From Candidatus Berkelbacteria bacterium RIFCSPLOWO2_01_FULL_50_28 (lineage in GTDB: Bacteria; Patescibacteriota; UBA1384; 2-12-FULL-50-11): a stretch of DNA of 64,000 bases. Shown piece after piece: positions 893 through 15,538 of the stretch; the stretch's first letter is position 1, and every line of letters starts with the position of its first letter. The notes under the pieces are model-generated. The model worked only from the letters and a program-made list of their open reading frames with translations, was not told where the DNA came from and ran no database searches. Where the stretch lies: positions 9,903 to 73,902 of the forward strand of contig MEZX01000003.1 of NCBI GenBank assembly GCA_001774395.1. Direction: 5' to 3'. Both the position numbers and the translations under genes were made by a program.

Positions 893-1570
893 ACTTTCCC
901 CATCTGATTTCGCGTATTTGTACGAGGAGTGCAAGCTTTGCTACTGCTTGAAAGTCAAAGAAAAAATTGGCCAGCCGAGCATGTCGATGCCGGGGGTATT
1001 TTTGACGATGAATTCACTGATGCAAAACAGCGTCGTCGGTAAAAACCTGCGATCGATCTCTGCCGATCTGCCAGATGGCGAAGTAATTAAACAGGAAGGT
1101 TTTGTTAAGTCTCAGCCAATCCCTGGTACTTCTGTGTTTATCGGCGGCAAATACGACTTACTCGTTAAAATTCGGACGGAACGCACACGCTGGTGGATCT
1201 GAAAATCTCTAAACCCAGCGACGGAAAAGCCCAGATGTATCAAAGCCAGCTCTGGGCGTATCAATACGCCCTGGAAAACCCGGACGAAGGCGATCCGTTG
1301 AAAATATCTAAACTGGCGCTGCTAATTTTCTATCCAGAAAGTGTCTTGTTCGAAAACGGTCAGGCCAACCTAACTTTCCCACCGCAGTGGCTGGAAGTGG
1401 AATATAACCACGACGGTTTTATGAATTTTATGAAAGAAGTGAACACCCTACTGGTCGGCCCGTTGCCGGACGAAGGCGAAACCTGCAAATGGTGCGCCTA
1501 CCGCCACAAAGGCGAAGAGATTGCTCACCACCTCCAGTCTTTGCCAACCGGCGACGAGCCACCGTTTTAG
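885..1570 (+). pseudogene. PD-(D/E)XK (Cas4/RecB-like) nuclease with N- and C-terminal Cys clusters, split by an apparent frameshift near 1166-1200
   Basis: GGAGG sits 4 nt upstream of the ATG at 885. Frame A ends ...GGKYDLLVKIRTERTRWWI* at 1202, and frame B from 1169 reads NSDGTHTLVDLKISKP. The composite GGKYDLLVKIRTDGTHTLVDLKISK matches nuclease motifs II-III (D...D-x-K). Cys clusters CKLCYC and CKWC are present. There is a homopolymer aaaa at 1167-1170. Confidence 0.5.
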
Positions 1571-1656
1571 CAAAAATTATTAAAGAAGGATGTGACGAAT
1601 GCGTCTATCACTCGGGCCGAAGCGAAATTTTGAGTGAGTAGTATAATCAAGGCAGA

Positions 1657-2220
1657 ATGAAAAGAAAAAATTTACTATTTGGTGGAGTGCTAGTTCTTCT
1701 TTTAGCTGTTGGGTATATTCTCTACTCACCAAATCAGGCAAGCGAACAAAACACTAGCGTTTCTTCGGCTGAAGAAACTTTTACAGAACTTGATTTTTCT
1801 GCTGAGCAGCTCAAGGATTACTATATCGTCTATGAAAATCCATTCGTGATTGCCATACGAACTTCATTGAACAATTACTTGGACGGGAATATTGATACTG
1901 GATTCGGAGATACCACAACAGCAATCGATTCAAGCACGGGTGATGACGGTACGGTTTACGGCCTAGATTCATTTGACAAGGAATACTATCAAAGTAAATT
2001 CATTGTCTTTGCGAGGAATGAATACAATTGGGGTGGTGAACTGATCAATATCGTATTTGTTGATAAACCGGACAAACTCTTTACTGCATGGATGTACAAG
2101 GGTGCTAGCGGATATGAGATGAGAGGATTCTCGCAAAATACTACTTTCGGTGCTCCTGAAATGAAAAAATTCAATCAACAATACGCAAAATTCTTTAGAG
2201 ATACCGAGCACAGTTTGTAA
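1657..2220 (+). CDS. hypothetical secreted/membrane-anchored protein
   Basis: 187-aa ORF with an N-terminal hydrophobic segment (LLFGGVLVLLLAVGYILY). It lies in an AT-rich segment. Confidence 0.45.
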   Translation: MKRKNLLFGGVLVLLLAVGYILYSPNQASEQNTSVSSAEETFTELDFSAEQLKDYYIVYENPFVIAIRTSLNNYLDGNIDTGFGDTTTAIDSSTGDDGTVYGLDSFDKEYYQSKFIVFARNEYNWGGELINIVFVDKPDKLFTAWMYKGASGYEMRGFSQNTTFGAPEMKKFNQQYAKFFRDTEHSL

Positions 2221-2304
2221 AGAATTAATTCCAACAATCTTAGGTCGCCGGCGGAATCAACCAACCAATCCGCAAATTATGCTGTCCGATAAACTCGCAA
2301 TCAA

Positions 2305-2335
2305 TCCCGGGCTCTGGATTTTCGTGCAATTCTCT
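2305..2335 (+). repeat. copy A of an intergenic ~30-nt motif (cccgggCTCTGGATTTTCGTGCAATT)
   Basis: Shares the core TCTGGAT(T/A)TT..CAATT with the copies at 2709, 3283 and 4391, all on the same strand. Confidence 0.6.
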
Positions 2336-2437
2336 CCCCAACACCTTGACCTTACAGGGGAAATATGAAATAATTCCGACCGTGTTGAGGGGTAATAACA
2401 ACGCAAGTCACATTGCGCTCAATACAGGGAGACAGTA

Positions 2438-2629
2438 ATGCCAGACATGATAACGTTCAGATGGGGAGACAAGCAGTACACTGCTCCCCGGGTAGTACAG
2501 ACCGACGATCTGTTGATCCGGCTTCCCGACGGCACGATCCTCAAGGTTCTGGAGTGGACGAAGGATGATCCGCCCCAGCCCATGTCAATTGGAAATCTGA
2601 GGATCGAAGACGCGACGCAGTCAAGCTAA
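2438..2629 (+). CDS. hypothetical small protein (63 aa)
   Basis: ORF preceded by GGGAGA 5 nt upstream of the ATG. No recognisable domain. Confidence 0.3.
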   Translation: MPDMITFRWGDKQYTAPRVVQTDDLLIRLPDGTILKVLEWTKDDPPQPMSIGNLRIEDATQSS

Positions 2630-2708
2630 AACTCGCACGGTTCTTGCCAGGCGCTCAGCCCCAGTCTACAAGCTGGAGCTGGGCGCCATTTTCATACCCC
2701 AAACTTCC

Positions 2709-2750
2709 ACCCGGGCTCTGGATATTTGCTCAATTTTTCGGTACAATTTG
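2709..2750 (+). repeat. copy B of the intergenic motif (cccgggCTCTGGATATTTGCTCAATTtttcggtacaattt)
   Basis: Same core as copy A, including the preceding cccggg. It lies upstream of the likely TTG start of the next gene. Confidence 0.6.
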
Positions 2751-2784
2751 GCGGCTGGAATATGTTTTCAGCGGGAGGCTCGTG

Positions 2785-3240
2785 TTGCGTACATTTATTG
2801 ATTACTCACACTCCATTTTCAGTTTGGAGCCCGTGGGGGGCGTGTCTAGACAAGACCTGAGTGCGATAGTCGATGCTTTCAAAGCCAAGGGCATTAACCC
2901 CCATGATGAGACCTTCGATAGCGAACAGCATCGAGGAAGAAGGATCTTACTTTCAAGAGAGTGGACACTTAGCGATTTTTCAACCATTGCGACTTGTGAC
3001 TTTCTCTTTGTCCTTCAGGAAGGTGTCCTGACCGAGAAGATGCTACTGGACATAGGTTATTGTCTCAGCGAGACAATCCCAATTGTTGTCGCCGCCAAGT
3101 ACGATATCTACGGTTCATGCATACCACACATCGGTGAGTTTTGTTTGCGTTGGCGGAGAGTTTCCGAGTTAGTCGAGCAAATAGCCGTTGCCGACTTTGC
3201 TAAGCTAAGTCGTAAAATCGCAAAACGAAATCCGACGTGA
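2785..3240 (+). CDS. nucleoside 2-deoxyribosyltransferase-like protein (start uncertain; the six-frame ORF begins at 2644)
   Basis: The C-terminal LQEGVLTEKMLLDIGYCLSETIPIVVAAKYD resembles the NDT-fold signature (D-x-G-T-x-x-E-x-G-Y...kP-v-v). GGGAGG precedes the TTG at 2785. A hairpin follows the stop codon. Confidence 0.4.
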   Translation: MRTFIDYSHSIFSLEPVGGVSRQDLSAIVDAFKAKGINPHDETFDSEQHRGRRILLSREWTLSDFSTIATCDFLFVLQEGVLTEKMLLDIGYCLSETIPIVVAAKYDIYGSCIPHIGEFCLRWRRVSELVEQIAVADFAKLSRKIAKRNPT

Positions 3241-3269
3241 GGGACTTGTTCCCTCACGTCATCCTTTTG
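3235..3269 (+). terminator. rho-independent terminator candidate
   Basis: Perfect 10-bp stem acgtgaggga/tccctcacgt with loop cttgt, followed by catccttttg. Confidence 0.5.
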
Positions 3270-3282
3270 CCCAAACCCCTCA

Positions 3283-3312
3283 CCCAAACTCTGGATTTTT
3301 ACTACAAATTAC
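3283..3312 (+). repeat. copy C of the intergenic motif (aaaCTCTGGATTTTTACTACAAATT)
   Basis: Shared TCTGGATTTTT core and CAAATT tail. Confidence 0.55.
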
Positions 3313-3369
3313 TAAAGAAAAACTGGCTCGGTCGAAACAAGTTCAACCGAGCCGATCCGGGAGTTCCGC

Positions 3370-3579
3370 TTATGTGAGCGGTTCAAGGTTCTCGCAACGC
3401 GGAGTGGGGCAGCGCAGTTCCCCTGGTACGGCCCTGACCGCATTGTGGCAGCTCGGGCAGATGAGGGTTTGCTGGTTCTCCACCAGCTGGCGAACTCCGG
3501 AGTCTGAGTGCAGAACTCCATCCACGCGATTCCACGAATGTTCATCGGCGGGAATTGTCATAAGAACTTTTTGGGGCAT
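3370..3579 (-). CDS. small zinc-ribbon protein (about 69 aa)
   Basis: On the minus strand, GGAGGAAGGAAGTA precedes ATG (MPQKVLM...). The C-terminus has CPSCHNAV...CPTPRC, a 4-Cys ribbon. Confidence 0.4.
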   Translation of the reverse strand: MPQKVLMTIPADEHSWNRVDGVLHSDSGVRQLVENQQTLICPSCHNAVRAVPGELRCPTPRCENLEPLT

Positions 3580-3687
3580 TACTTCCTTCCTCCGTGCGAG
3601 TTTGCACGCTGGGGTAACTATAGACACAGTTACCAAAAAGTCAACGATCCGGTTGGATTACCGCAATATATAAGTTCTAGGAGGAAA

Positions 3688-4356
3688 TCATTTAATGACA
3701 GAACCAGAAATTTGTGAAATTAATGTCGTTTTATCTTGTTGATAATTAGTTGAGTCGGTATGTAATCTGTACTCAATTGAAGAAGCTGGTTGACTATAAA
3801 GGAGAACACACCCAATTTGTACTGATTCGTCAACTCGATCTTCAAGGCAACGATATTTGCCTGTAGAGATGCTCGTTGTTGGAATGATGACAGTTGGTTT
3901 TCTGTTAATTGGGTTTAAGGTTAAGGGGTAGTCCTCAATGTTTTTTGGTACTGCAGCCCCAGATAATTTTAGGTACACAATTAATGATCTAGGGAAGCCA
4001 GTATAGAAATAATCTGTGTAAGCCAGCGTACTGCTATCTACTACATCTTTGTTATCAGCAGCTTGTGAATCTGCAAGGGCTTTTGATTTCTCGTCAGGGA
4101 AAGCCACAGCATTTACGCCTTTCCCGAAAGGCCAGCCAGCTTCACTCATCCAATCATTTTGATTGGGAATAGCTACTTTAGTTTTACCCCCATCGACATT
4201 AATTTTTATTGAGTTGTCAATTGATTCTTCTGTCGTAGATTTTTCTATCCCAGAGCTTTCCTTATCTGGTTGAAGATAGGCGTAAGTTGCGACTACGGCA
4301 ATAAAAATGAATAAGAGCAATACCACTAAAACAAAGATTTTGCGCTGGGAGTTCAT
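3688..4356 (-). CDS. hypothetical membrane-anchored protein
   Basis: An internal Met (MNSQRKIFVLVVLLLFIFIAVV) gives a TM anchor. The rest is Ser/Thr/Asn-rich and the gene is AT-rich. Confidence 0.45.
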   Translation of the reverse strand: MNSQRKIFVLVVLLLFIFIAVVATYAYLQPDKESSGIEKSTTEESIDNSIKINVDGGKTKVAIPNQNDWMSEAGWPFGKGVNAVAFPDEKSKALADSQAADNKDVVDSSTLAYTDYFYTGFPRSLIVYLKLSGAAVPKNIEDYPLTLNPINRKPTVIIPTTSISTGKYRCLEDRVDESVQIGCVLLYSQPASSIEYRLHTDSTNYQQDKTTLISQISGSVIK

Positions 4357-4390
4357 GAATAAATGATAACAATTTTTGCTAAATGTCGCA

Positions 4391-4430
4391 TCGGGTTCTG
4401 GATTTTTGTTCAATTTTTTGATACAAATTG
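4391..4430 (+). repeat. copy D of the intergenic motif (gggtTCTGGATTTTTGTTCAATTttttgatacaaattg)
   Basis: Same core and same orientation as copies A-C. Confidence 0.55.
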
Positions 4431-4441
4431 ACGACTTTTTG

Positions 4442-4738
4442 CTAGCGGTTGGCGGCTAGGGCGTAAGGCAGAAAATACGCATCCCAACTCTTTGTGGTTT
4501 CGCCATATTGGTTATCGCTGTAAAACGAATCGGTAAAGACTTCCCGAATACGAGCAATTTCTTTTAAAAACGGTCTGTTATTCGCGTCAGACAAACTCCA
4601 GTCGAGCAGCTCCAGCGCGCGTTCAGCTGCGCCTTCGGCGCGGCTAACATTGATGCCTTTCCATTTCATCGCTCGGCCGATTTCGCTGCCGATATTGCCG
4701 AATTGATAGTAGATATCATGCGACTGCCAGTCTGTCAT
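4442..4738 (-). CDS. conserved hypothetical protein, downstream gene of a 2-gene operon
   Basis: 98-aa ORF overlapping the upstream ORF by 4 nt (translationally coupled). Confidence 0.45.
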   Translation of the reverse strand: MTDWQSHDIYYQFGNIGSEIGRAMKWKGINVSRAEGAAERALELLDWSLSDANNRPFLKEIARIREVFTDSFYSDNQYGETTKSWDAYFLPYALAANR

Positions 4739-5112
4739 TTCACCAGTTCCGCAATGATTTTTCTAATTTTTCCTTGAATTTGTTGGTCTTCGACCGATCG
4801 GGAACGATTATTCTGTGACGGGCGGATATTGATCATCGAGTCGAATTCAATCAAATCGTCATCATTGGGACGGAGATTAATACCCCAAAGATCATTTTGC
4901 TTTGAGCCTCTCTCAAGTAAGAACGCTTCCTCGTCGGCGTGCATCACTCCGCCAATGGCCATAACACCGGAGTCGATGTCAACAACGGTTTTGACGAGTT
5001 CGCCACCAAATTGCTCATTGGCCTTTTTCTGGAGCAGTTCAATTGAAATGCATTTGTCGATTAGTTCTATTGCCATCAAGGATGATATTAGTTCATTCCG
5101 TCGCTTTTTCAT
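4735..5112 (-). CDS. conserved hypothetical protein (possibly DUF5674-like)
   Basis: 125-aa ORF with a GGVMHADEEAFLLERGSKQNDLWGINL motif. The DUF assignment is recalled from memory, not verified. Confidence 0.4.
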   Translation of the reverse strand: MKKRRNELISSLMAIELIDKCISIELLQKKANEQFGGELVKTVVDIDSGVMAIGGVMHADEEAFLLERGSKQNDLWGINLRPNDDDLIEFDSMINIRPSQNNRSRSVEDQQIQGKIRKIIAELVK

Positions 5113-5152
5113 ACCCTAAACTCTTGACTCTAACTGGTTAAGGAGGTATAGT

Positions 5153-5440
5153 TTGGCCTGTCGCGGAGGTTTAAAACCAGTGAGCAACCACGAACTTTGG
5201 ATGTGGATTTCCGGAGTGATCGGATTCAGTTGCTTCGTGGTTATTCACTTCACGAAGCTCTTAAAGAATCCTCTGTATGCAGGACTTGTACAGCTAGCGT
5301 CCAACGTTTTCGTTTTCGTCAGCTGGGGCTCGGCTTACATTAGCACTCGGGGATCATTCGCCCTTTTTGGAGTCATATTCCCGATTGTGACGGGGACCAT
5401 TACCATTCGCACGTTACTGCGAGCACGACGTCAATCATAG
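5153..5440 (+). CDS. small membrane protein (2-3 TM)
   Basis: AGGAGG sits 6 nt upstream of the TTG start. Hydrophobic segments are present, and a terminator follows. Confidence 0.4.
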   Translation: MACRGGLKPVSNHELWMWISGVIGFSCFVVIHFTKLLKNPLYAGLVQLASNVFVFVSWGSAYISTRGSFALFGVIFPIVTGTITIRTLLRARRQS

Positions 5441-5479
5441 GCGCGAAGAGGATTCCCCTTCGCGCCGCTTCTTTTTGCC
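5440..5479 (+). terminator. rho-independent terminator
   Basis: 9-bp stem ggcgcgaag/cttcgcgcc with loop aggattccc, then gcttctttttgcc. Confidence 0.7.
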
Positions 5480-5631
5480 TAGATTTCCCCTTTAAAATAA
5501 AGAACGAGTGTCCTTTCATGCGGCCGTTCCGTGGCCGCCCCATCTAGTTGCATTATTGGTTCTAACCCATAATCATTCCTAATTCACCATATGCTATATA
5601 TGGCATATGAGCCCAGAAGCCGAGCATTCCG

Positions 5632-5649
5632 TATGTGGTATACCACATA
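5632..5649. promoter_or_regulatory. perfect 18-bp palindrome TATGTGGTATACCACATA, candidate operator of the toxin-antitoxin module
   Basis: The sequence is its own reverse complement. It lies about 60 nt upstream of the antitoxin start. A second near-palindrome, CATATGCTATATATGGCATATG, is at 5590-5611. Confidence 0.4.
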
Positions 5650-5708
5650 AAGTGTATTTGGAGGTTTTTGGGTTGATCTTCGTTTGAAAAATCAATAAGA
5701 TTTACTCA

Positions 5709-5885
5709 ATGAGTCCGACACAGGCGAAAAACTTAGAGTCTCGTATTGACCGCTTGGAAAAGCTGGTGGATGTTGTGTTGCGACAAGACGATCAGGATTG
5801 GCTGAGCGACCCCAAACTCGTCGCCAAACTCGATAAAATTGCTGGCGATAAAACTCTAGTCTCCGAAAAAGCCGCCGGTATTTAA
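5709..5885 (+). CDS. putative antitoxin (58 aa)
   Basis: Small ORF below the 60-aa track cutoff, ending 5 nt before the RelE/ParE toxin start. Palindromes lie upstream. Confidence 0.4.
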   Translation: MSPTQAKNLESRIDRLEKLVDVVLRQDDQDWLSDPKLVAKLDKIAGDKTLVSEKAAGI

Positions 5886-5890
5886 ATCCG

Positions 5891-6157
5891 ATGCCGGAGC
5901 TTTTCTACAAGCCCGGCGCTCTGCGGGTTGTCAAAAAGTTTACTGCCGTAGAAATAACTGAATACAAAAATGTGCTGGCCGAAATCAAGCAGTTTCCTGA
6001 CGGCGGGAAATTTCTAAAGGGTTCGCTGAAGGGCTTGAGGAAGTGGAAATACAAAGTCCGGTCGATTCCCTACCGAATAGTTTACCTATTTGAAAATAAC
6101 ACGATTACGATAATCGCTGTTGGCAAACGCAAAGATTTTTACGAGCTGCTAAAGTAA
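5891..6157 (+). CDS. type II toxin, RelE/ParE family
   Basis: 88 aa. The C-terminal YRIVYLFENNTITIIAVGKRKDFY is the typical RelE/ParE signature. Confidence 0.75.
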   Translation: MPELFYKPGALRVVKKFTAVEITEYKNVLAEIKQFPDGGKFLKGSLKGLRKWKYKVRSIPYRIVYLFENNTITIIAVGKRKDFYELLK

Positions 6158-6223
6158 CCCACCCATCCATAATTCCGTCATCCCCAATTTTCCCTCAATC
6201 CTCTCTGCCGGAGGGACTGAGTT

Positions 6224-8041
6224 TTATTTTTTTGATTTGGCGCGCAAGGATGAGTTCAGGATTTTTTTGCGCAAGCGCAGCGACTTTGGCGTTACTTCCA
6301 ATAGCTCGTCGTCTTCCAGAAAATCGATACACTGCTCCAGGCTCATAACAGTCGGCGGCGTTAATATAGTTGGATCTTCCGAACCAGCGGCGCGCATATT
6401 GGTTTTCTGTTTTTCTTTACAGACGTTCATCTCTAAATCGGTGTCGCGCGAATTCAAGCCGACAATCATCCCCTCGTAAACTGGGGTTTGCGGCAGTATG
6501 AAGGTGACGCCGCGCTCTTGCGCGTTATCCAAGCCAAAGACCAGCGCCGTGCCAGTTTCGGAAGCTATTAAGGCACCGTTTCTCATACGATTGATGGCTG
6601 CACTAACCGGCTCAAAGTGCAGGAAGATAGAGTTCATCACGGCCGTGCCGCGAGAGAGCGTAAGTAAAACATTTCGCAACCCTAAAAGACCGCGGGTCGG
6701 AATTTCAAACAGGAGGCGAGTTGTACCGTCCTCGTTCTCGCTTTGCTTGGTAAGTATCCCTTTGCGCCGACCGACTTCGCCGGTGATTGAGCTGGCGTAC
6801 GGACTTTCAACGTCGACGGTTAGCTCTTCAATCGGTTCTTGTACCTTACCGTCAATAACTTTGGTTATAACTTGTGGTTTGCCGATCTGGAGCTCAAATC
6901 CTTCGCGACGCATGGTTTCAATAAAGACCGACAGGTGCAGTTCGCCTCGGCCGGACAAAATATATTCGTTGTTCTCACCCGCTTCCATTCGAAGCGAAAC
7001 GTTCACTTCCAGCTCTTTCAAAATTCGTTCGTGAATTTTTTGGCTAACTAGTTGCGTGCCTTCGCGGCCGATAAACGGTGACGTATTGGCGGAGACGGCC
7101 ATTTTAAGCGTTGGCTCGGCGATGGCGATGGTCGGCAGGGCCTCAGGACTAGCACCGTCAGCGATCGTATCGCCGATGCGGCAGTTCTTCACTCCGGTAA
7201 GGGCAACAATATCGCCGGAAACTGCTTGCTCAACCTGCAGCCGCTTGAGGCCATGATTGACATAAACTCGGTCGATTTTGGCGTTTTCGCGGAAACCCTC
7301 GGGCGTGCCGATGGAAACGGTCAGCCCTGGCTTGGCGACACCGCGCGTAATTTTGCCGATAGCGTATTTGCCCTGGAAACTATCCCAGTCCAGCGCTGAA
7401 ACGAGCATTTGGAACGGCTCGTTATCGGCCTTGGTCGGGGCCGGTGCGTGCTCAAGAATCGCCTCAAAAATTGGATTCAAATTAGCCGGCTCGTGTTGCT
7501 CGGCGACCGTGGGCATATAAGACCAGGCCTTACCCTCGCGGCCGATGGCGTAATAAATTGGAAATTCCAGCTGTGTGACGTCGGTAGCCAAATCCAAAAA
7601 TAAATTCGAAGTTTCGCGGATGACTTTTTCAATTTGCGAATCCGGTTTGTCGATTTTGTTAATAACCACAATTGGCCGGAGCCCCATTTCCAGCGCCTTT
7701 TTCAGGACGAATTTGGTTTGCGGCATCGGACCTTCTTTGGCGTCGATGATTAGAAGCGCGCTGTCGGTCATATTGAGGGTGCGTTCTACTTCACCGCCAA
7801 AGTCGGCGTGACCCGGGGTGTCGACGATATTTATTTTGATGCCGTTGTAAGATACAGCAGTATTTTTGGCCAAAATTGTGATGCCGCGCTCGCGCTCTTG
7901 ATCGTTGGAATCCATAATCAAGTCTTGCGACATCTCGGCCTCGTTGTCGCGGAATGTTTTTGATTGCTTCAGCAAACCGTCCACCAGAGTGGTTTTGCCG
8001 TGATCAACGTGAGCAATTACCGCGACGTTTCGGATAGGCAT
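6224..8041 (-). CDS. typA: translational GTPase TypA/BipA
   Basis: AHVDHGKTTL and DTPGHADF G-domain motifs. 605 aa with EF-G-like domain order. Confidence 0.9.
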   Translation of the reverse strand: MPIRNVAVIAHVDHGKTTLVDGLLKQSKTFRDNEAEMSQDLIMDSNDQERERGITILAKNTAVSYNGIKINIVDTPGHADFGGEVERTLNMTDSALLIIDAKEGPMPQTKFVLKKALEMGLRPIVVINKIDKPDSQIEKVIRETSNLFLDLATDVTQLEFPIYYAIGREGKAWSYMPTVAEQHEPANLNPIFEAILEHAPAPTKADNEPFQMLVSALDWDSFQGKYAIGKITRGVAKPGLTVSIGTPEGFRENAKIDRVYVNHGLKRLQVEQAVSGDIVALTGVKNCRIGDTIADGASPEALPTIAIAEPTLKMAVSANTSPFIGREGTQLVSQKIHERILKELEVNVSLRMEAGENNEYILSGRGELHLSVFIETMRREGFELQIGKPQVITKVIDGKVQEPIEELTVDVESPYASSITGEVGRRKGILTKQSENEDGTTRLLFEIPTRGLLGLRNVLLTLSRGTAVMNSIFLHFEPVSAAINRMRNGALIASETGTALVFGLDNAQERGVTFILPQTPVYEGMIVGLNSRDTDLEMNVCKEKQKTNMRAAGSEDPTILTPPTVMSLEQCIDFLEDDELLEVTPKSLRLRKKILNSSLRAKSKK

Positions 8042-11172: not shown

Positions 11173-12144
11173 TCAGGAAGTGGCCAATTTTGGCGAGATG
11201 GTTTGAGCGCAGAGCTGGCGGTACGCGCAGTATCGATCCATTACTCGCTTCTCAGTGGAGTTGGGTCTTCGACGGTAACGCCGACCACCTTTCCGACGAA
11301 CTGAGGGGTCTTGCAGTGAGGCGAGTAGCTGGCTCATCATCCCGCTGATCTGCACCTGAGTCGCCTTGTCACACAGACCTTTTTCGATCGCGTTGTGAAT
11401 AGCACCGCGAATCTTGCCGAGGTAGCTGCGTGGCAGGATGATGCTCCGATTCTGATTGAGTGTGAATCCAGCGATCTTGACTGGCCCGCGGTTCAGGTCA
11501 AGGATTTGGGTCTTACTTTCATGGATCACCAAACCAGCTTCGCGCATCAGGCCGTAGATGGCCTGGCGTTTCTTCTTGCCGATTCTCGTCATTGACGACA
11601 AGGTGATGTCGTCGAGATAACGGGTGTACGTCAGACCGTACTGCTTGCAGAGCTCTATGAGTTTGCTGTCGAGCAGGACTGCCACGTAGAGATTGTAGAG
11701 ATCGGGCGAGGCTGGTGCTCCAGTGAGCAGGCCGCCTTTGTTGTTAAGACAGTAGCGCTGGAGGAACTGTGTGACTACTTCAGATCCAAATAGATCGCGC
11801 GGCAGAGTTGGATCAAGCTCCAACAAGACCTGGACCAACTTCTCTTCGTCAACTGTTCCGTAAGCATCCTTGATGTCTAACAGCAAAAAGTACCTATTGT
11901 TTCGGTGCGGAAAGATGTTGGTGATTGACGAATGGCCTTTCCTGGCGCCGGTGGCCGCGGAAAGATCGGCTGGTAGCGAACGAAGGTAGCTAATCAGTGC
12001 GCTATGAACCTCTCGCATTTGAGCGTTAGGTGCGGAAATGTGACGACGTTTGGTTCTGCCGCCGAGAGGGTTCACATCCTTCAGAAAGAAGTGACGAAAA
12101 GCTGCTCCCTCGACAGGAGCGGCCAATATTGGTTTGTTTGACAT
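11173..12144 (-). CDS. reverse transcriptase, retron-type (putative)
   Basis: 323 aa. RT motifs: NRYFLLLDIKDAYGTV (motif 2), GLLTGAPASPDLYNLYV (motif 4), TYTRYLDDITLSS (YxDD), VIHESKTQIL (motif 6) and KIAGFTL (VTG-like). SITNIFPH is NAxxH-like. No maturase or endonuclease domain. AGGAG is 6 nt upstream of the ATG. Confidence 0.7.
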   Translation of the reverse strand: MSNKPILAAPVEGAAFRHFFLKDVNPLGGRTKRRHISAPNAQMREVHSALISYLRSLPADLSAATGARKGHSSITNIFPHRNNRYFLLLDIKDAYGTVDEEKLVQVLLELDPTLPRDLFGSEVVTQFLQRYCLNNKGGLLTGAPASPDLYNLYVAVLLDSKLIELCKQYGLTYTRYLDDITLSSMTRIGKKKRQAIYGLMREAGLVIHESKTQILDLNRGPVKIAGFTLNQNRSIILPRSYLGKIRGAIHNAIEKGLCDKATQVQISGMMSQLLASLQDPSVRRKGGRRYRRRPNSTEKRVMDRYCAYRQLCAQTISPKLATS

Positions 12145-12239
12145 CTGTTACTCCTGTTGTGGTTGATGTGAAAGGGCGAAGAATTCCAGCGAAGATGGGG
12201 CAGGGAAAGATTACGACTTACTCTTGGTTGAGTCAAGCA

Positions 12240-12326
12240 AAACTTTTTCAAGATGATATTCCCGGCCGGGTTCGTCTCTCTCGTGAACAAAGAGAGCTGT
12301 ACGAACAGCTAAAAAACTTAAGTTAA
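12240..12326 (+). pseudogene. displaced fragment encoding a DnaJ C-terminal tail (KLFQDDIPGRVRLSREQRELYEQLKNLS*)
   Basis: 16/21 residues are identical to the tail of the intact DnaJ-like gene, in frame to a stop. There is no convincing RBS. Confidence 0.4.
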
Positions 12327-13378
12327 CCGGCGTTGGCTTCGAGAAATTCCAGCACCACTTCTTCTTCGGGCAGCAAACCAACGGTATCTACTTCAAGAGT
12401 GCTGATAGTATCGACTTTGGGGCCATTTCCGCTCAAGAAGCTTTCCAAAACAAACGGGTGGACGTAACATTTACGACAAACGGTGGGCGTATTACCAAGC
12501 TCGGCGGCGACGGTTTTAATCGTGGCAGTGATCAACTTTTTGTTCTCGCGTTCGGTTTTGGCGCGCTGACACTCAGAGAGCAGAATCGCCGCCAAAATCG
12601 TCCCTCGCCAGGTACGAAAATCTTTGGCGGTGAACTCTTCGCCAGATGCATCTTGGATATACTCGTTGACATCTGCCGAATCGATACCGTGCAGGTTGTC
12701 ATCCTCGTCAATAAATTGAAATAGCTCTTGCCCGGGCAAGTCTTGGAGCCTGCCGATCAGGCGAGCCAGGCGGCGATCTTCGAACTCGACGGTGTGAAAC
12801 TGGCCGCTTTTACCCTTGAAGTTGATAGTGACTTTAATCGAGCCAACCTCGACGTGACGGTTACGCAAAGTGGTTAGGCCGTACGATTGGTTTTCTTTGG
12901 CGTACTGCTCGTTGCCGACGCGAATCATTGTTTTCTCGAGTAATTTAACGATTGTCGCTAAGACCTTTTCCCGTGGCAGGCCCTGCTTGTTCATGTCTTC
13001 GGACATTTGGGAGCGGATTTTTGGCAGAGCCTTGCCAAATTCGATTGTTTTTTCAAATTTGGACTGATCGCGAAATTTTAACCAGTCGGGATGGTAGCGG
13101 TACTGTTTGCGGCCTTTCTCGTCGGTGCCGATTGCTTGCAGATGGCTGTTAGCAACGGGCGAGATGACGACATTCTCCCAGCCCGGCGGCAGGACGAGCG
13201 AACGAATTCTCTCAAGCGTTTCTGGTTCGGTGATGTTTTCGTCTTCTTTTTTGTAATAGTAAAACTTGTCGCCGCGTTTAGCGCGTTTGATTGTTAGTTG
13301 GTCTTCGCGAAAGTAACGCAACCCGGCCTCTTTGGCCGAAGCGACCGGGTCGCCGGTAAGCTCAATGACGTTTTCCAT
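12323..13378 (-). CDS. DNA topoisomerase IB (poxvirus/eukaryotic-type)
   Basis: 351 aa. GKSGQFH, the catalytic region AELGNTPTVCRKCYVHP (active-site Tyr), and an N-terminal DNA-binding region. Confidence 0.7.
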   Translation of the reverse strand: MENVIELTGDPVASAKEAGLRYFREDQLTIKRAKRGDKFYYYKKEDENITEPETLERIRSLVLPPGWENVVISPVANSHLQAIGTDEKGRKQYRYHPDWLKFRDQSKFEKTIEFGKALPKIRSQMSEDMNKQGLPREKVLATIVKLLEKTMIRVGNEQYAKENQSYGLTTLRNRHVEVGSIKVTINFKGKSGQFHTVEFEDRRLARLIGRLQDLPGQELFQFIDEDDNLHGIDSADVNEYIQDASGEEFTAKDFRTWRGTILAAILLSECQRAKTERENKKLITATIKTVAAELGNTPTVCRKCYVHPFVLESFLSGNGPKVDTISTLEVDTVGLLPEEEVVLEFLEANAG

Positions 13379-14095: not shown

Positions 14096-15538
14096 TCAGA
14101 CAGTATTGCCAAGCAGGTATTCGATTGCCTGCTTAGCACCGTATGAGTCGTTCGGACCATCCATCAGGAACGGGAGAAAATCCAGATTTCCCGCAGTTAC
14201 GACCGCGGGCTCTCCCTTGTTGCCTAATCTGGCCGTGACCATCAGACCATTACAGAGACATCCCCTGCCGACGGTATCTTCGAGTTTCCCGCCCTTAGCG
14301 GTATACTTCTTCTCCGGTTCGGCGGCGCATCTGTAGCCGATGGAACCGTCTGGCTTCTCGTACAGAGAGACCAGAGCGCACTGATTACAGACGCGATCTC
14401 TCTTCCTGAAGACCTCTGGGTCAGCGATCGTCCCTTCCAGCTCTACAACTTGAAAAGGATATCCTGTTGGAGAGATGTCCATATCAGTACGAACTTTCAA
14501 TGTGCCATTGTACCCCTGCCTCCGAACTTCGCGGCGAATTTCAGGATCCATTCCGGAATCGTCACTGAAAGCAAACATAGAGCCGACTTGGATGCCCATT
14601 GCGCCGACCGACAGTGCCCAGCGGAGTCTTTCCGGTGAGGCGCAAGAACCACCGATATAGAACCGCACACCGAGTGCGACGAGCTTGGCATAGTCGACAA
14701 CATCCTTTTCGCCGTAGACAAGAATTTGTTCGCCGTCAGCGTTTATCGCGGGGGTTCTCGGCGGAGCGTTATGCCCGCCAGCCGTTGGCCCTTCAACGAC
14801 AAGAGCGGCGATATCTCCTTCGATCTTCGTCGCAAAGAGAATGGCAAGGGCGGTCGAGGCAACGATGGGAATGAATCCCGGCTTCTTCATCGGCGGCAAT
14901 TCGCTTCCGAAGAACTTTTTGGGATCAAAACTCATCGCATACTTCTTGGTCTTTCCGTCGATACCGGCGTAATCTACGTCGTAGTGGACTACTCTTCCTT
15001 CGGCGATCGCGTCGATCACGTCAGGGATTTGTCGCGGTATGCCAGCACCCACGGTTACGAAGTCCACACCAGCCATCATCGCACCAAGGATACCGCACAT
15101 CAGTGACATGGAAATTTTCGCCATGTAGTTGATGCTGACCGGATTACTGTGTCCCTCTTTCGCTAAGTAGACAAAGGCGTAGTTAGCGCAAATTGTCAGA
15201 GCGATCAAGCGAGCCGGGGGTTTGACAGTAAAAACTGGTTTACCCTTGTACTTTGCTCCAGCCGGAATCCCGCCTTCGACGAAATACTCGTCAAGCACCC
15301 CTTTGGCCATATTCTGGAACGGAAAAGTTGCCAAAGCGCGTCGAAGGTGTCCACCTAGATCGCCTTCTTGCAAAAGCCGCGCTAGCAGAATATCTGCACC
15401 GACACCCGACACGGTACCAAGTTGGCCAAGCATCGAGACGATTCGTGCTAGCGGCCAGATCGAGATATTGAATCCCATCCCTCCCTGGATAACCCGCGGG
15501 AGGCAGTGGACTTCTGTCGAACTGTTAAGTTTCTTCAA
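14096..15538 (-). CDS. nitronate monooxygenase / FabK-like enoyl-ACP reductase II family (NMO, 2-nitropropane dioxygenase-like)
   Basis: IQGGMG and VVEGPTAGGH motifs. 480 aa. Visibly GC-rich. Confidence 0.65.
   Translation of the reverse strand: MKKLNSSTEVHCLPRVIQGGMGFNISIWPLARIVSMLGQLGTVSGVGADILLARLLQEGDLGGHLRRALATFPFQNMAKGVLDEYFVEGGIPAGAKYKGKPVFTVKPPARLIALTICANYAFVYLAKEGHSNPVSINYMAKISMSLMCGILGAMMAGVDFVTVGAGIPRQIPDVIDAIAEGRVVHYDVDYAGIDGKTKKYAMSFDPKKFFGSELPPMKKPGFIPIVASTALAILFATKIEGDIAALVVEGPTAGGHNAPPRTPAINADGEQILVYGEKDVVDYAKLVALGVRFYIGGSCASPERLRWALSVGAMGIQVGSMFAFSDDSGMDPEIRREVRRQGYNGTLKVRTDMDISPTGYPFQVVELEGTIADPEVFRKRDRVCNQCALVSLYEKPDGSIGYRCAAEPEKKYTAKGGKLEDTVGRGCLCNGLMVTARLGNKGEPAVVTAGNLDFLPFLMDGPNDSYGAKQAIEYLLGNTV

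Follow-up and report, generated by a model that had tools for sequence, protein, structure and literature searches.

Promoter reuse by way of putative mobile promoters was reportedly described in 2012 by Matus-Garcia, Nijveen and van Passel. Such promoters lie upstream of non-homologous genes and share 80% identity or more over a minimum of 50 nt, sometimes across taxa, by a mechanism that is unknown (PMC3575422). Here we describe a recurring element of about 75 nt, present in one complete and three incomplete copies in 64 kb of DNA from Candidatus Berkelbacteria bacterium RIFCSPLOWO2_01_FULL_50_28, which we read, with no better than even confidence, as a reused promoter joined to a leader and a ribosome-binding site (RBS). 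This whole 64-kb stretch, to which the motif search of the source genome was confined, is called the window throughout.

Other classes of short sequence provide further points of reference. The attC sites of integrons are imperfect inverted repeats (R''-L''...L'-R') that fold as single-stranded hairpins and carry a GTTRRRY core, with the intI tyrosine recombinase gene beside the array. The dif and pdif sites are 28 bp long, with two 11-nt dyad arms about a 6-nt centre, and promoters of the sigma-70 type have hexamers like TTGACA and TATAAT that lie 16-18 nt apart. To our knowledge, almost nothing is known of promoters, leaders or gene-exchange mechanisms in bacteria from the candidate phyla radiation (CPR), which cannot be grown alone.

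Results

Four copies of a motif within 2.1 kb

A preliminary description of the window had pointed out four same-strand, intergenic copies of a motif and had offered three readings of them: promoters for an alternative sigma factor, attC-like cassette boundaries, or a small dispersed repeat. The copies themselves are readily confirmed, since matches to the core CTCTGGATTTTTG with no more than one mismatch lie at 2312, 2716, 3289 and 4396, always on the + strand and always between called genes (copies A to D; Table 1), and no fifth match at this threshold exists in the 64 kb. The CCCGGG said to precede copies A and B is also present in the sequence; the CAATT ending ascribed to copy C is actually CAAATT, part of a -10-like TACAAATT, and this copy has a 12-nt deletion in its spacer. 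A 19-nt degenerate pattern gave three matches against 0.54 expected, a count that none of 100 shuffles reached. With a sequence-only model of the longer module described below, built from five complete copies and run with filters off, all four copies were scored (Table 1), and the next-best match in the 64 kb has 7.3 bits (E = 0.25); the motif is confined to 2.1 kb. Because the window holds no further copies, none stands before any of its 14 tRNA genes or before a housekeeping gene, the placement that the preliminary description had named as the mark of an ordinary promoter element.

The four copies differ in completeness. Copy B is complete. Copy A is recognisable as the module over its first half only, and it has no -10 element. 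Copy C, an orphan between two convergent terminators, has only 5 nt from TGGATT to TACAAA. Copy D shares 45 nt with copy B at 82% identity and has about 10 nt of diverged leader after its -10 element; it ends 5 nt short of the stop codon of the convergent 98-aa gene (4442-4444), and no gene follows it.

Anatomy of the module

On sequence comparison, the motif as first described is the -35/spacer half of what appears to be a longer promoter-leader-RBS module, because a leader and a constant distance to the start codon are common to copies that stand before unrelated genes. The module, about 75 nt in total, runs from CTCTGGATTTTCGCTCAATTTTCCGRTACAAT through a leader, TTGGCGGCTGGAA...TTTCAGC, that contains a predicted 5' hairpin, to GGAGG and the start codon; its upstream part reads CTCTGGATTTT-CGCTCAATTTTCCGR-TACAAT. 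The leader, in the form TTGGCGGCTGGAA-nnn-GTTTTCAGC-RGGAGG, is common to four copies, one in the window and one each in the related loci L051, L020 and L037, and in four copies before three non-homologous genes the start codon follows TACAAT at 36-37 nt. The genes behind a complete module are the 151-aa gene (window and L051), a gene for a secreted protein in L020 and one for a 147-aa signal-peptide protein in L037. Copies C and D and seven other orphan copies lack a constant short distance to an RBS and start codon.

A promoter scan recovered copy B as a sigma-70-like site, TGGATA-17-TACAAT, with 9 of 12 matches. The spacing TGGATW-17-TACAAW is retained in B, L051, L020 (590-641), L037 (11430-11480), D and L053 (756-803), although the spacer sequence itself has changed, and the final T of the -10 element is absent (TACAAA) in D, C and L037_1. 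By our own tally, promoter geometry is intact in four to five of the eight gene-linked copies versus two of the nine orphans (D and L053). Of the suggested promoter for an alternative sigma factor, the promoter is supported for the complete copy B and the alternative sigma factor is not, the geometry being sigma-70-like.

Copy B and L020 599-653 are 89% identical over 55 nt, and the proteins encoded downstream are unrelated. The window and L051 are homologous at the nucleotide level across 2715-3247, from 1 base before CTCTGG to 7 nt past the stop codon of the 151-aa gene, bounds that suggest that the module moves with its gene; the L051 orthologue of this gene has 81% protein identity. Within this block CTCTGGAT is conserved at 8 of 8 positions and TACAATTTGGCGGCTGGAA at 19 of 19, with six changes in the 26-nt region between them, and constant ends about a changing spacer region are the pattern expected of a promoter. 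The leader of the pair differs by one 1-nt indel between motif and gene. A hairpin of 7 bp at the 5' end of the mRNA is predicted in three of the four leaders, without covariation support because its stem never varies. Among the Rfam 15 covariance models, only tRNAs reached the gathering score in the window and nothing relevant was found at E <= 5 in 1500-6300, on which ground a known RNA family was rejected.

Distribution in related genomes

The same locus is present on 18 contigs from aquifer metagenomes, and the nine that were compared are 99.7-100% identical with unchanged gene order, providing no usable variation. The module also occurs on six other Berkelbacteria-like contigs, which brings the total to 18 distinct copies over seven genomes or loci including the window; L020 and L029 were reached through a motif scan, and L037, L042, L047, L049, L051 and L053 through homologues of the 98-aa and 151-aa proteins. 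The proposed small dispersed repeat is thus borne out, though confined to variable islands of related genomes. A scan of a genome collection with GGGYTCTGGATWTTNNNNCAATT gave 22 single matches versus about 17 by chance, only L020 and L029 being related, and a scan of a metagenome collection gave five chance-like matches and did not recover the source strain itself. No match to the motif was found in three scans of viral and mobile contigs, and a phage origin was rejected on that basis. Few orthologous upstream regions could be compared, because a homologue search with the 63-aa protein found only itself, making it an ORFan, and the search for close homologues of the 151-aa protein gave only two close clusters.

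Hypervariable slot and its genes

A single slot holds all four copies; its left border is a PD-(D/E)XK nuclease gene and its right border an operon of a DUF5674 gene and the 98-aa gene. Both flanks have 69-89% nucleotide identity in L042, L037 and L047, and the cargo between them is wholly different in each genome: L042 has a heliorhodopsin and a glycosidase gene, L037 five other genes and L047 a single one. The description of 1600-5500 as an AT-rich island applies to its average, which at 45.0% GC versus 49.6% for the window is the second lowest among 301 segments of 3900 nt; it does not apply throughout, the composition being a mosaic. This per-gene GC content of 38-57% (Table 1), together with the differing cargo in the window, L042, L037 and L047, indicates that the slot turns over. 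No integrase or transposase is present in the Pfam list for L001, whose span reaches 5.3 kb leftward beyond the window start and, on the other side, base 15,112 (-5.3 kb to +15 kb).

Table 1. Features of the variable slot and its flanks (positions in the window)
Feature	Position	Strand	Evidence and remarks
PD-(D/E)XK nuclease gene, left conserved flank	about 885/899-1570	+	Nucleotide homology to L042, L047 and L037
187-aa gene	1657-2220	+	N-terminal hydrophobic segment; 38.5% GC; no Pfam match; left of first repeat
Hairpin GCGGAAT-CAACCAACC-AATCCGC, then AAATTATGC	2251-2273	+	Left-arm block of copy A
Copy A	2306-2331	+	CCCGGG plus CTCTGGATTTTCGTGCAATT; 22.9 bits, model positions 4-33
Sigma-70-like promoter TTGACC-17-AATAAT with TG	2346-2374	+	Promoter scan; 15 nt downstream of copy A
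63-aa gene	2438-2629	+	54.7% GC; terminator-like hairpin 2650-2687, then ATTTTCAT
Copy B	2710-2784	+	Complete module, 56.7 bits; precedes 151-aa gene
Copy B, promoter elements	2719-2747	+	TGGATA 2719-2724, 17-nt spacer, TACAAT 2742-2747, then leader TTGGCGGCTGGAA
Copy B, leader and RBS	2754-2785	+	Predicted 5' hairpin 2754-2772, GGGAGG 2773-2778, TTG start at 2785
151-aa gene, nucleoside 2-deoxyribosyltransferase/N-glycosidase superfamily	2785-3240	+	Travels with module B; 46.9% GC
Terminator-like hairpin	3234-3260	+	Overlaps stop codon of 151-aa gene
Copy C	3283-3310	+	CTCTGGATTTTTAC fused directly to TACAAATT; 11.4 bits (E = 0.013)
Terminator of Zn-ribbon gene	3325-3353	-	Promoter/terminator scan
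69-aa Zn-ribbon-like gene	3370-3579	-	CxxC...CxxC; 57.1% GC; own promoter TTGACT-16-TATAGT at 3644-3617
222-aa gene	3688-4356	-	N-terminal membrane anchor; 38.6% GC; TGTTATCAT 6 nt upstream of ATG
Copy D	4389-4437	+	TGGATT 4399-4404, 17-nt spacer, TACAAA 4422-4427; 49.3 bits
98-aa gene and DUF5674 gene, operon, right conserved flank	4442-5112	-	

The earlier descriptions of the small cassette genes hold up. The PD-(D/E)XK gene of the left flank is frameshifted near base 1169, where tblastn with the intact L047 protein finds frame 2 used for residues 1-95 and frame 1 for residues 96-228, and gene callers on the strain contigs likewise give two open reading frames (ORFs). The hairpin block to the left of copy A also stands before the motif in L047 (two copies) and before the L053 copy at the D position, and the promoter that follows copy A probably serves the 63-aa gene. 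Zinc-ribbon matches to the 69-aa protein are weak. A -10-like box lies only 6-7 nt from the ATG of two - strand genes, the 222-aa gene (TGTTATCAT, 4357-4380) and a 136-aa gene of L020 (GATACAAT, 6002-6025), and this proximity suggests that leaderless mRNAs may occur in these bacteria.

At the right border, the antisense of the final codons of the 98-aa gene (TTGGCGGCTAGG, 4436-4457) resembles the leader of the module (TTGGCGGCTGG, 2735-2756), a likeness that could be due to chance or to microhomology at the junction. The heliorhodopsin gene occupies the equivalent slot at L042 10430-11215 (= L029 5559-6344), 55 nt downstream of a motif copy. The relative that bears it is labelled Saccharibacteria in the public record; its DUF5674/99-aa genes are 76% identical to the Berkelbacteria window at the DNA level, and the label may for that reason be a binning error.

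The 151-aa protein

The product of 2785-3240 had been likened to nucleoside 2-deoxyribosyltransferases (NDTs), and remote homologues, profile matches and a structure model all agree with that call. The protein itself has no direct Pfam match; 34 of its 37 remote homologues match PF05014, and its profile finds NDTs in the PDB at E of about 5e-6. A structure model predicted from 37 sequences has a mean confidence (pLDDT) of 89, compared with 37.7 from three sequences, and matches MilB (E 5e-6, TM score 0.66-0.68) as well as BcmB and NDT structures. Both MilB and BcmB are CMP N-glycosidases. Membership of the NDT/N-glycosidase superfamily is supported by these matches. In the window the gene stands alone, and the left arm of its terminator is formed by its own last codons; at L051 4201-5939 the orthologue overlaps the start of a 428-aa gene with an NmeDI_C domain (restriction-endonuclease-like).

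Surrounding loci

Several features beyond the slot were recorded. Between a 95-aa membrane ORF and a ParE-like pair lies a 268-nt gap (5441-5708) that contains a perfect 18-nt palindrome, TATGTGGTATACCACATA (5632-5649), a hairpin at 5441-5465 and an AT-rich near-palindrome at about 5588-5611. The pair itself (5709-6157), located between the island and typA, consists of a 58-aa ORF and an 88-aa ParE-like toxin and constitutes a type II toxin-antitoxin pair. At 11173-13378 (- strand) a 323-aa reverse transcriptase gene (RVT_1) adjoins a bacterial type IB topoisomerase gene, a synteny conserved at L037 4159-6724; the surroundings of the reverse transcriptase (9-18 kb) contain no repeats of 40 nt or longer, so that no template/variable pair of a diversity-generating retroelement is evident there. 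Directly left of the window (L001 15113-20378) are a type I restriction-modification system (HsdS, a DUF4062 protein and HsdR), a DUF6994 protein and a Bro-N protein, which give the neighbourhood the look of a defence or accessory island.

Candidate identities considered and rejected

The attC-like boundary was put to the test of folding, and single-stranded DNA z scores for the four copies were +0.83, 0.00, +0.71 and -1.28 on one strand and +0.26, +0.11, +0.75 and -1.65 on the other. There is no palindromic fold, a GTTRRRY core could be read in none of the copies, and no intI gene or other integrase is found in the L001 Pfam list over the span given above; the attC part of the cassette-boundary reading is accordingly dropped, and its other part, the location of the copies at cassette junctions, is retained. 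A dif or pdif Xer site was rejected because the core has direct rather than inverted repeats and cumulative GC skew has no turning point at the island. A remnant of coding sequence was suggested by the + frame GLWIF(A/V)QF, with variation mostly at every third base; start and stop codons are not conserved and the L051 indel breaks the frame. A miniature inverted-repeat transposable element or a derivative of an insertion sequence was discarded after a repeat search and flank alignments found neither terminal inverted repeats nor target-site duplications, and sigma-54 spacing, a DnaA box and a Chi-like site were set aside on inspection of spacing and symmetry.

Discussion

The anatomy of the module, its reuse across genomes, its restriction to islands and the coincidence of its copies with cassette junctions are evident from the comparisons above. 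To account for them we favour, with about as much belief as doubt, a reused promoter-leader module in a cassette-turnover hotspot, one copy in the window being intact and three impaired. Berkelbacteria would thereby reuse an expression module of about 75 nt before unrelated accessory genes. Copy B would be the sole working copy in the window, supplying promoter and leader to the 151-aa NDT-like gene, with RNA polymerase starting about 7 nt past TACAAT. Copy A would be a first half only, upstream of a separate promoter, copy C would have lost its spacer, and copy D would retain the right spacing with a weakened -10 element and no gene; such incomplete copies are presumed inactive or weak. Cargo genes of differing composition would be swapped in and out of the hypervariable slot that holds all four copies, and the co-oriented copies may double as homology anchors during this exchange.

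A number of observations weigh against this explanation. The -35-like TGGATT matches TTGACA weakly, and the collection-wide scans used a single strict pattern on collections from which the source genome is apparently absent. Half of the copies (9 of 18) look towards the 3' end of a convergent gene and lack any co-oriented gene downstream, compared with eight that have a co-oriented gene start downstream and one that runs off a contig end. Four to five of these nine gene-less copies sit between convergent genes, which is unexpected for a promoter. Within each of the seven loci all copies share one orientation, and in L020 two copies on the + strand stand between three genes on the - strand. The window, L053, L037 and L042 each have a copy right against the stop codon of the 98/99-aa gene, a recurrence that makes D not a fresh relic but an old, positionally conserved copy; its L053 counterpart scores 53 bits with a perfect TGGATT-17-TACAAT, and in L042 and L049 the -10 element at this position is decayed. 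In A, L020 6058 and L029 conservation is higher in the first half of the module than in the second, which simple decay would not predict. Copy C and its terminator block are homologous to a block of L051 with different genes alongside, and copies in general are closer to copies in other genomes than to their neighbours in the same genome. Taken together, the gene-less copies, the uniform orientation, the recurrence of the D position and the likeness across genomes keep a role as cassette junction or homology anchor under consideration. Copy D and its counterparts might also drive antisense RNA.

In the main rival explanation, which could also be an addition to the first, the motif would be a recombination junction, its co-oriented copies acting as insertion or exchange sites for circular or incoming cassettes. 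The copy by the 98-aa gene would be the resident site, exchange would be due to a site-specific recombinase or to RecA acting on 45-55 nt, and promoter activity would be secondary or additional. There is one copy per cassette boundary irrespective of gene orientation, all 18 copies are co-oriented within their respective loci, and the four genomes that keep the copy next to the 98/99-aa stop codon each have different DNA to its left. L042 and L037 each have a single cargo gene bracketed by two direct copies, and two direct copies also enclose the DUF5674/99-aa operon of L053; the units [module + 151-aa gene] and [module + terminator] adjoin each other in the window as well as in L051, in swapped order; and the closer likeness of copies to those of other genomes would mean that they arrived with their cargo. 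Nevertheless, neither integrase nor transposase nor resolvase is present between -5.3 kb and +15 kb, the core is without dyad symmetry, GTTRRRY or a dif-like arm, and its single strands form no hairpin. The 18 same-strain contigs from different samples are arranged identically and without presence/absence polymorphism, RecA would have little substrate in 45-55 nt of 82-90% identity, and the best-conserved complete copies resemble expression signals rather than recombinase binding sites. We consider a recombination junction unlikely on balance. A bolder form, in which the copies are the junction sites of an integrase-less CPR gene-cassette system with a module of about 50 nt at the 5' end of each cassette, strikes us as quite unlikely; cassettes would be inserted at, or swapped between, resident copies, of which the resident site abuts the DUF5674/98-aa operon, and a single sequence would be both recombination site and promoter for whatever lands behind it.

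The core of 20-23 nt, common to all copy types, might instead be the operator of a DNA-binding regulator that co-regulates the accessory genes of the island, the surrounding promoter parts being incidental. It contains two (G/A)ATTTTC direct repeats 11 nt apart, T-rich 7-mers one helical turn from each other that are similar to the sites of winged-helix response regulators; about 13 of the 18 copies (our own tally) have one or more gene starts, on either strand, no farther than about 250 nt away, and Bro-N genes, whose island product might be the regulator, adjoin the slot in the window, L042 and L051. Its place relative to promoters varies, however, the core overlapping the -35 element in B and being some 15-35 nt upstream of that element in A. 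Four to five copies occupy convergent gaps with no gene start near, the uniform orientation is left unaccounted for, and the candidate regulator is only putative, Bro-N being absent from several of the loci compared, all of which makes an operator very unlikely in our estimation. Highly improbable, finally, is that the motif belongs to a miniature mobile element, non-autonomous and about 90-110 nt long, with an outward-facing promoter as in Correia and ERIC sequences; it would consist of hairpin, linker and motif, at times with another hairpin. L047 does have two copies of an 88-nt unit, 93% identical and with a hairpin at both ends; a left hairpin plus TAAATTNTG stands before copy A of the window and the L053 copy; and a second hairpin block, ACACCCC..GGGGTGT then ATGGTTTAGG, recurs in L047 and L029. 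Yet no copy is surrounded by terminal inverted repeats or target-site duplications, the blocks vary in order and combination, there is no transposase in the span searched, the copies are few and confined to islands, and the scans of viral and mobile contigs were empty. The second block, a hairpin ACACCCC-GC-GGGGTGT or a longer CCATAT...ATATGG stem before ATGGTTTAGG, was observed at L047 5211-5297, 4197-4284 and 6665-6703 and at about L029 5455-5495; its place relative to the motif is downstream in L047 and upstream in L029. In sequence, the recurring hairpin blocks around some copies show what looks like a mosaic repeat family.

On the present evidence the copies are recycled regulatory DNA. 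The module provides a concrete candidate for an expression signal of Berkelbacteria, in which a -35-like element and TACAAT at 17-nt spacing are combined with a hairpin leader and a strong RBS, and it marks a hotspot of accessory-gene turnover whose cargo includes an NDT-like protein, heliorhodopsin, restriction enzymes and secreted proteins. If it is true that the co-oriented copies are sites of cassette exchange, they would represent a new way to combine recombination and expression signals.

Comparison with known systems

In Xer modules (dif/pdif and integrative mobile elements exploiting Xer, IMEX), too, small groups of genes are flanked by arrays of short sites and the island contains no integrase; unlike these, the Berkelbacteria motif has no 11-6-11 dyad, and the cumulative GC skew does not turn at the island. 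Correia, enterobacterial repetitive intergenic consensus (ERIC) and bacterial interspersed mosaic element (BIME) repeats are similarly short intergenic mosaics of recurring blocks that include hairpins, and some supply promoters, whereas the Berkelbacteria copies are without terminal inverted repeats or target duplications and number a handful, in accessory islands only. With integron arrays and clusters of attC sites lacking integron-integrases (CALINs) the locus shares short same-orientation repeats between small heterogeneous cassettes, including some reversed genes with promoters of their own; it differs in that its repeat has no attC fold, GTTRRRY core or intI, and travels at the 5' rather than the 3' end of the gene. 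The closest described phenomenon appears, from the sequence comparisons, to be promoter reuse by putative mobile promoters. The 89% identity over 55 nt between copy B and L020, before non-homologous genes, lies within the limits used to define these promoters, and the module is likewise shared between genomes with no known mobile element or Rfam family attached. Unlike them, the Berkelbacteria module also spans the -10 element, a conserved leader and an RBS, and half of its copies are gene-less; all copies in a locus share one orientation and are positioned at the cassette junctions of one hypervariable slot.

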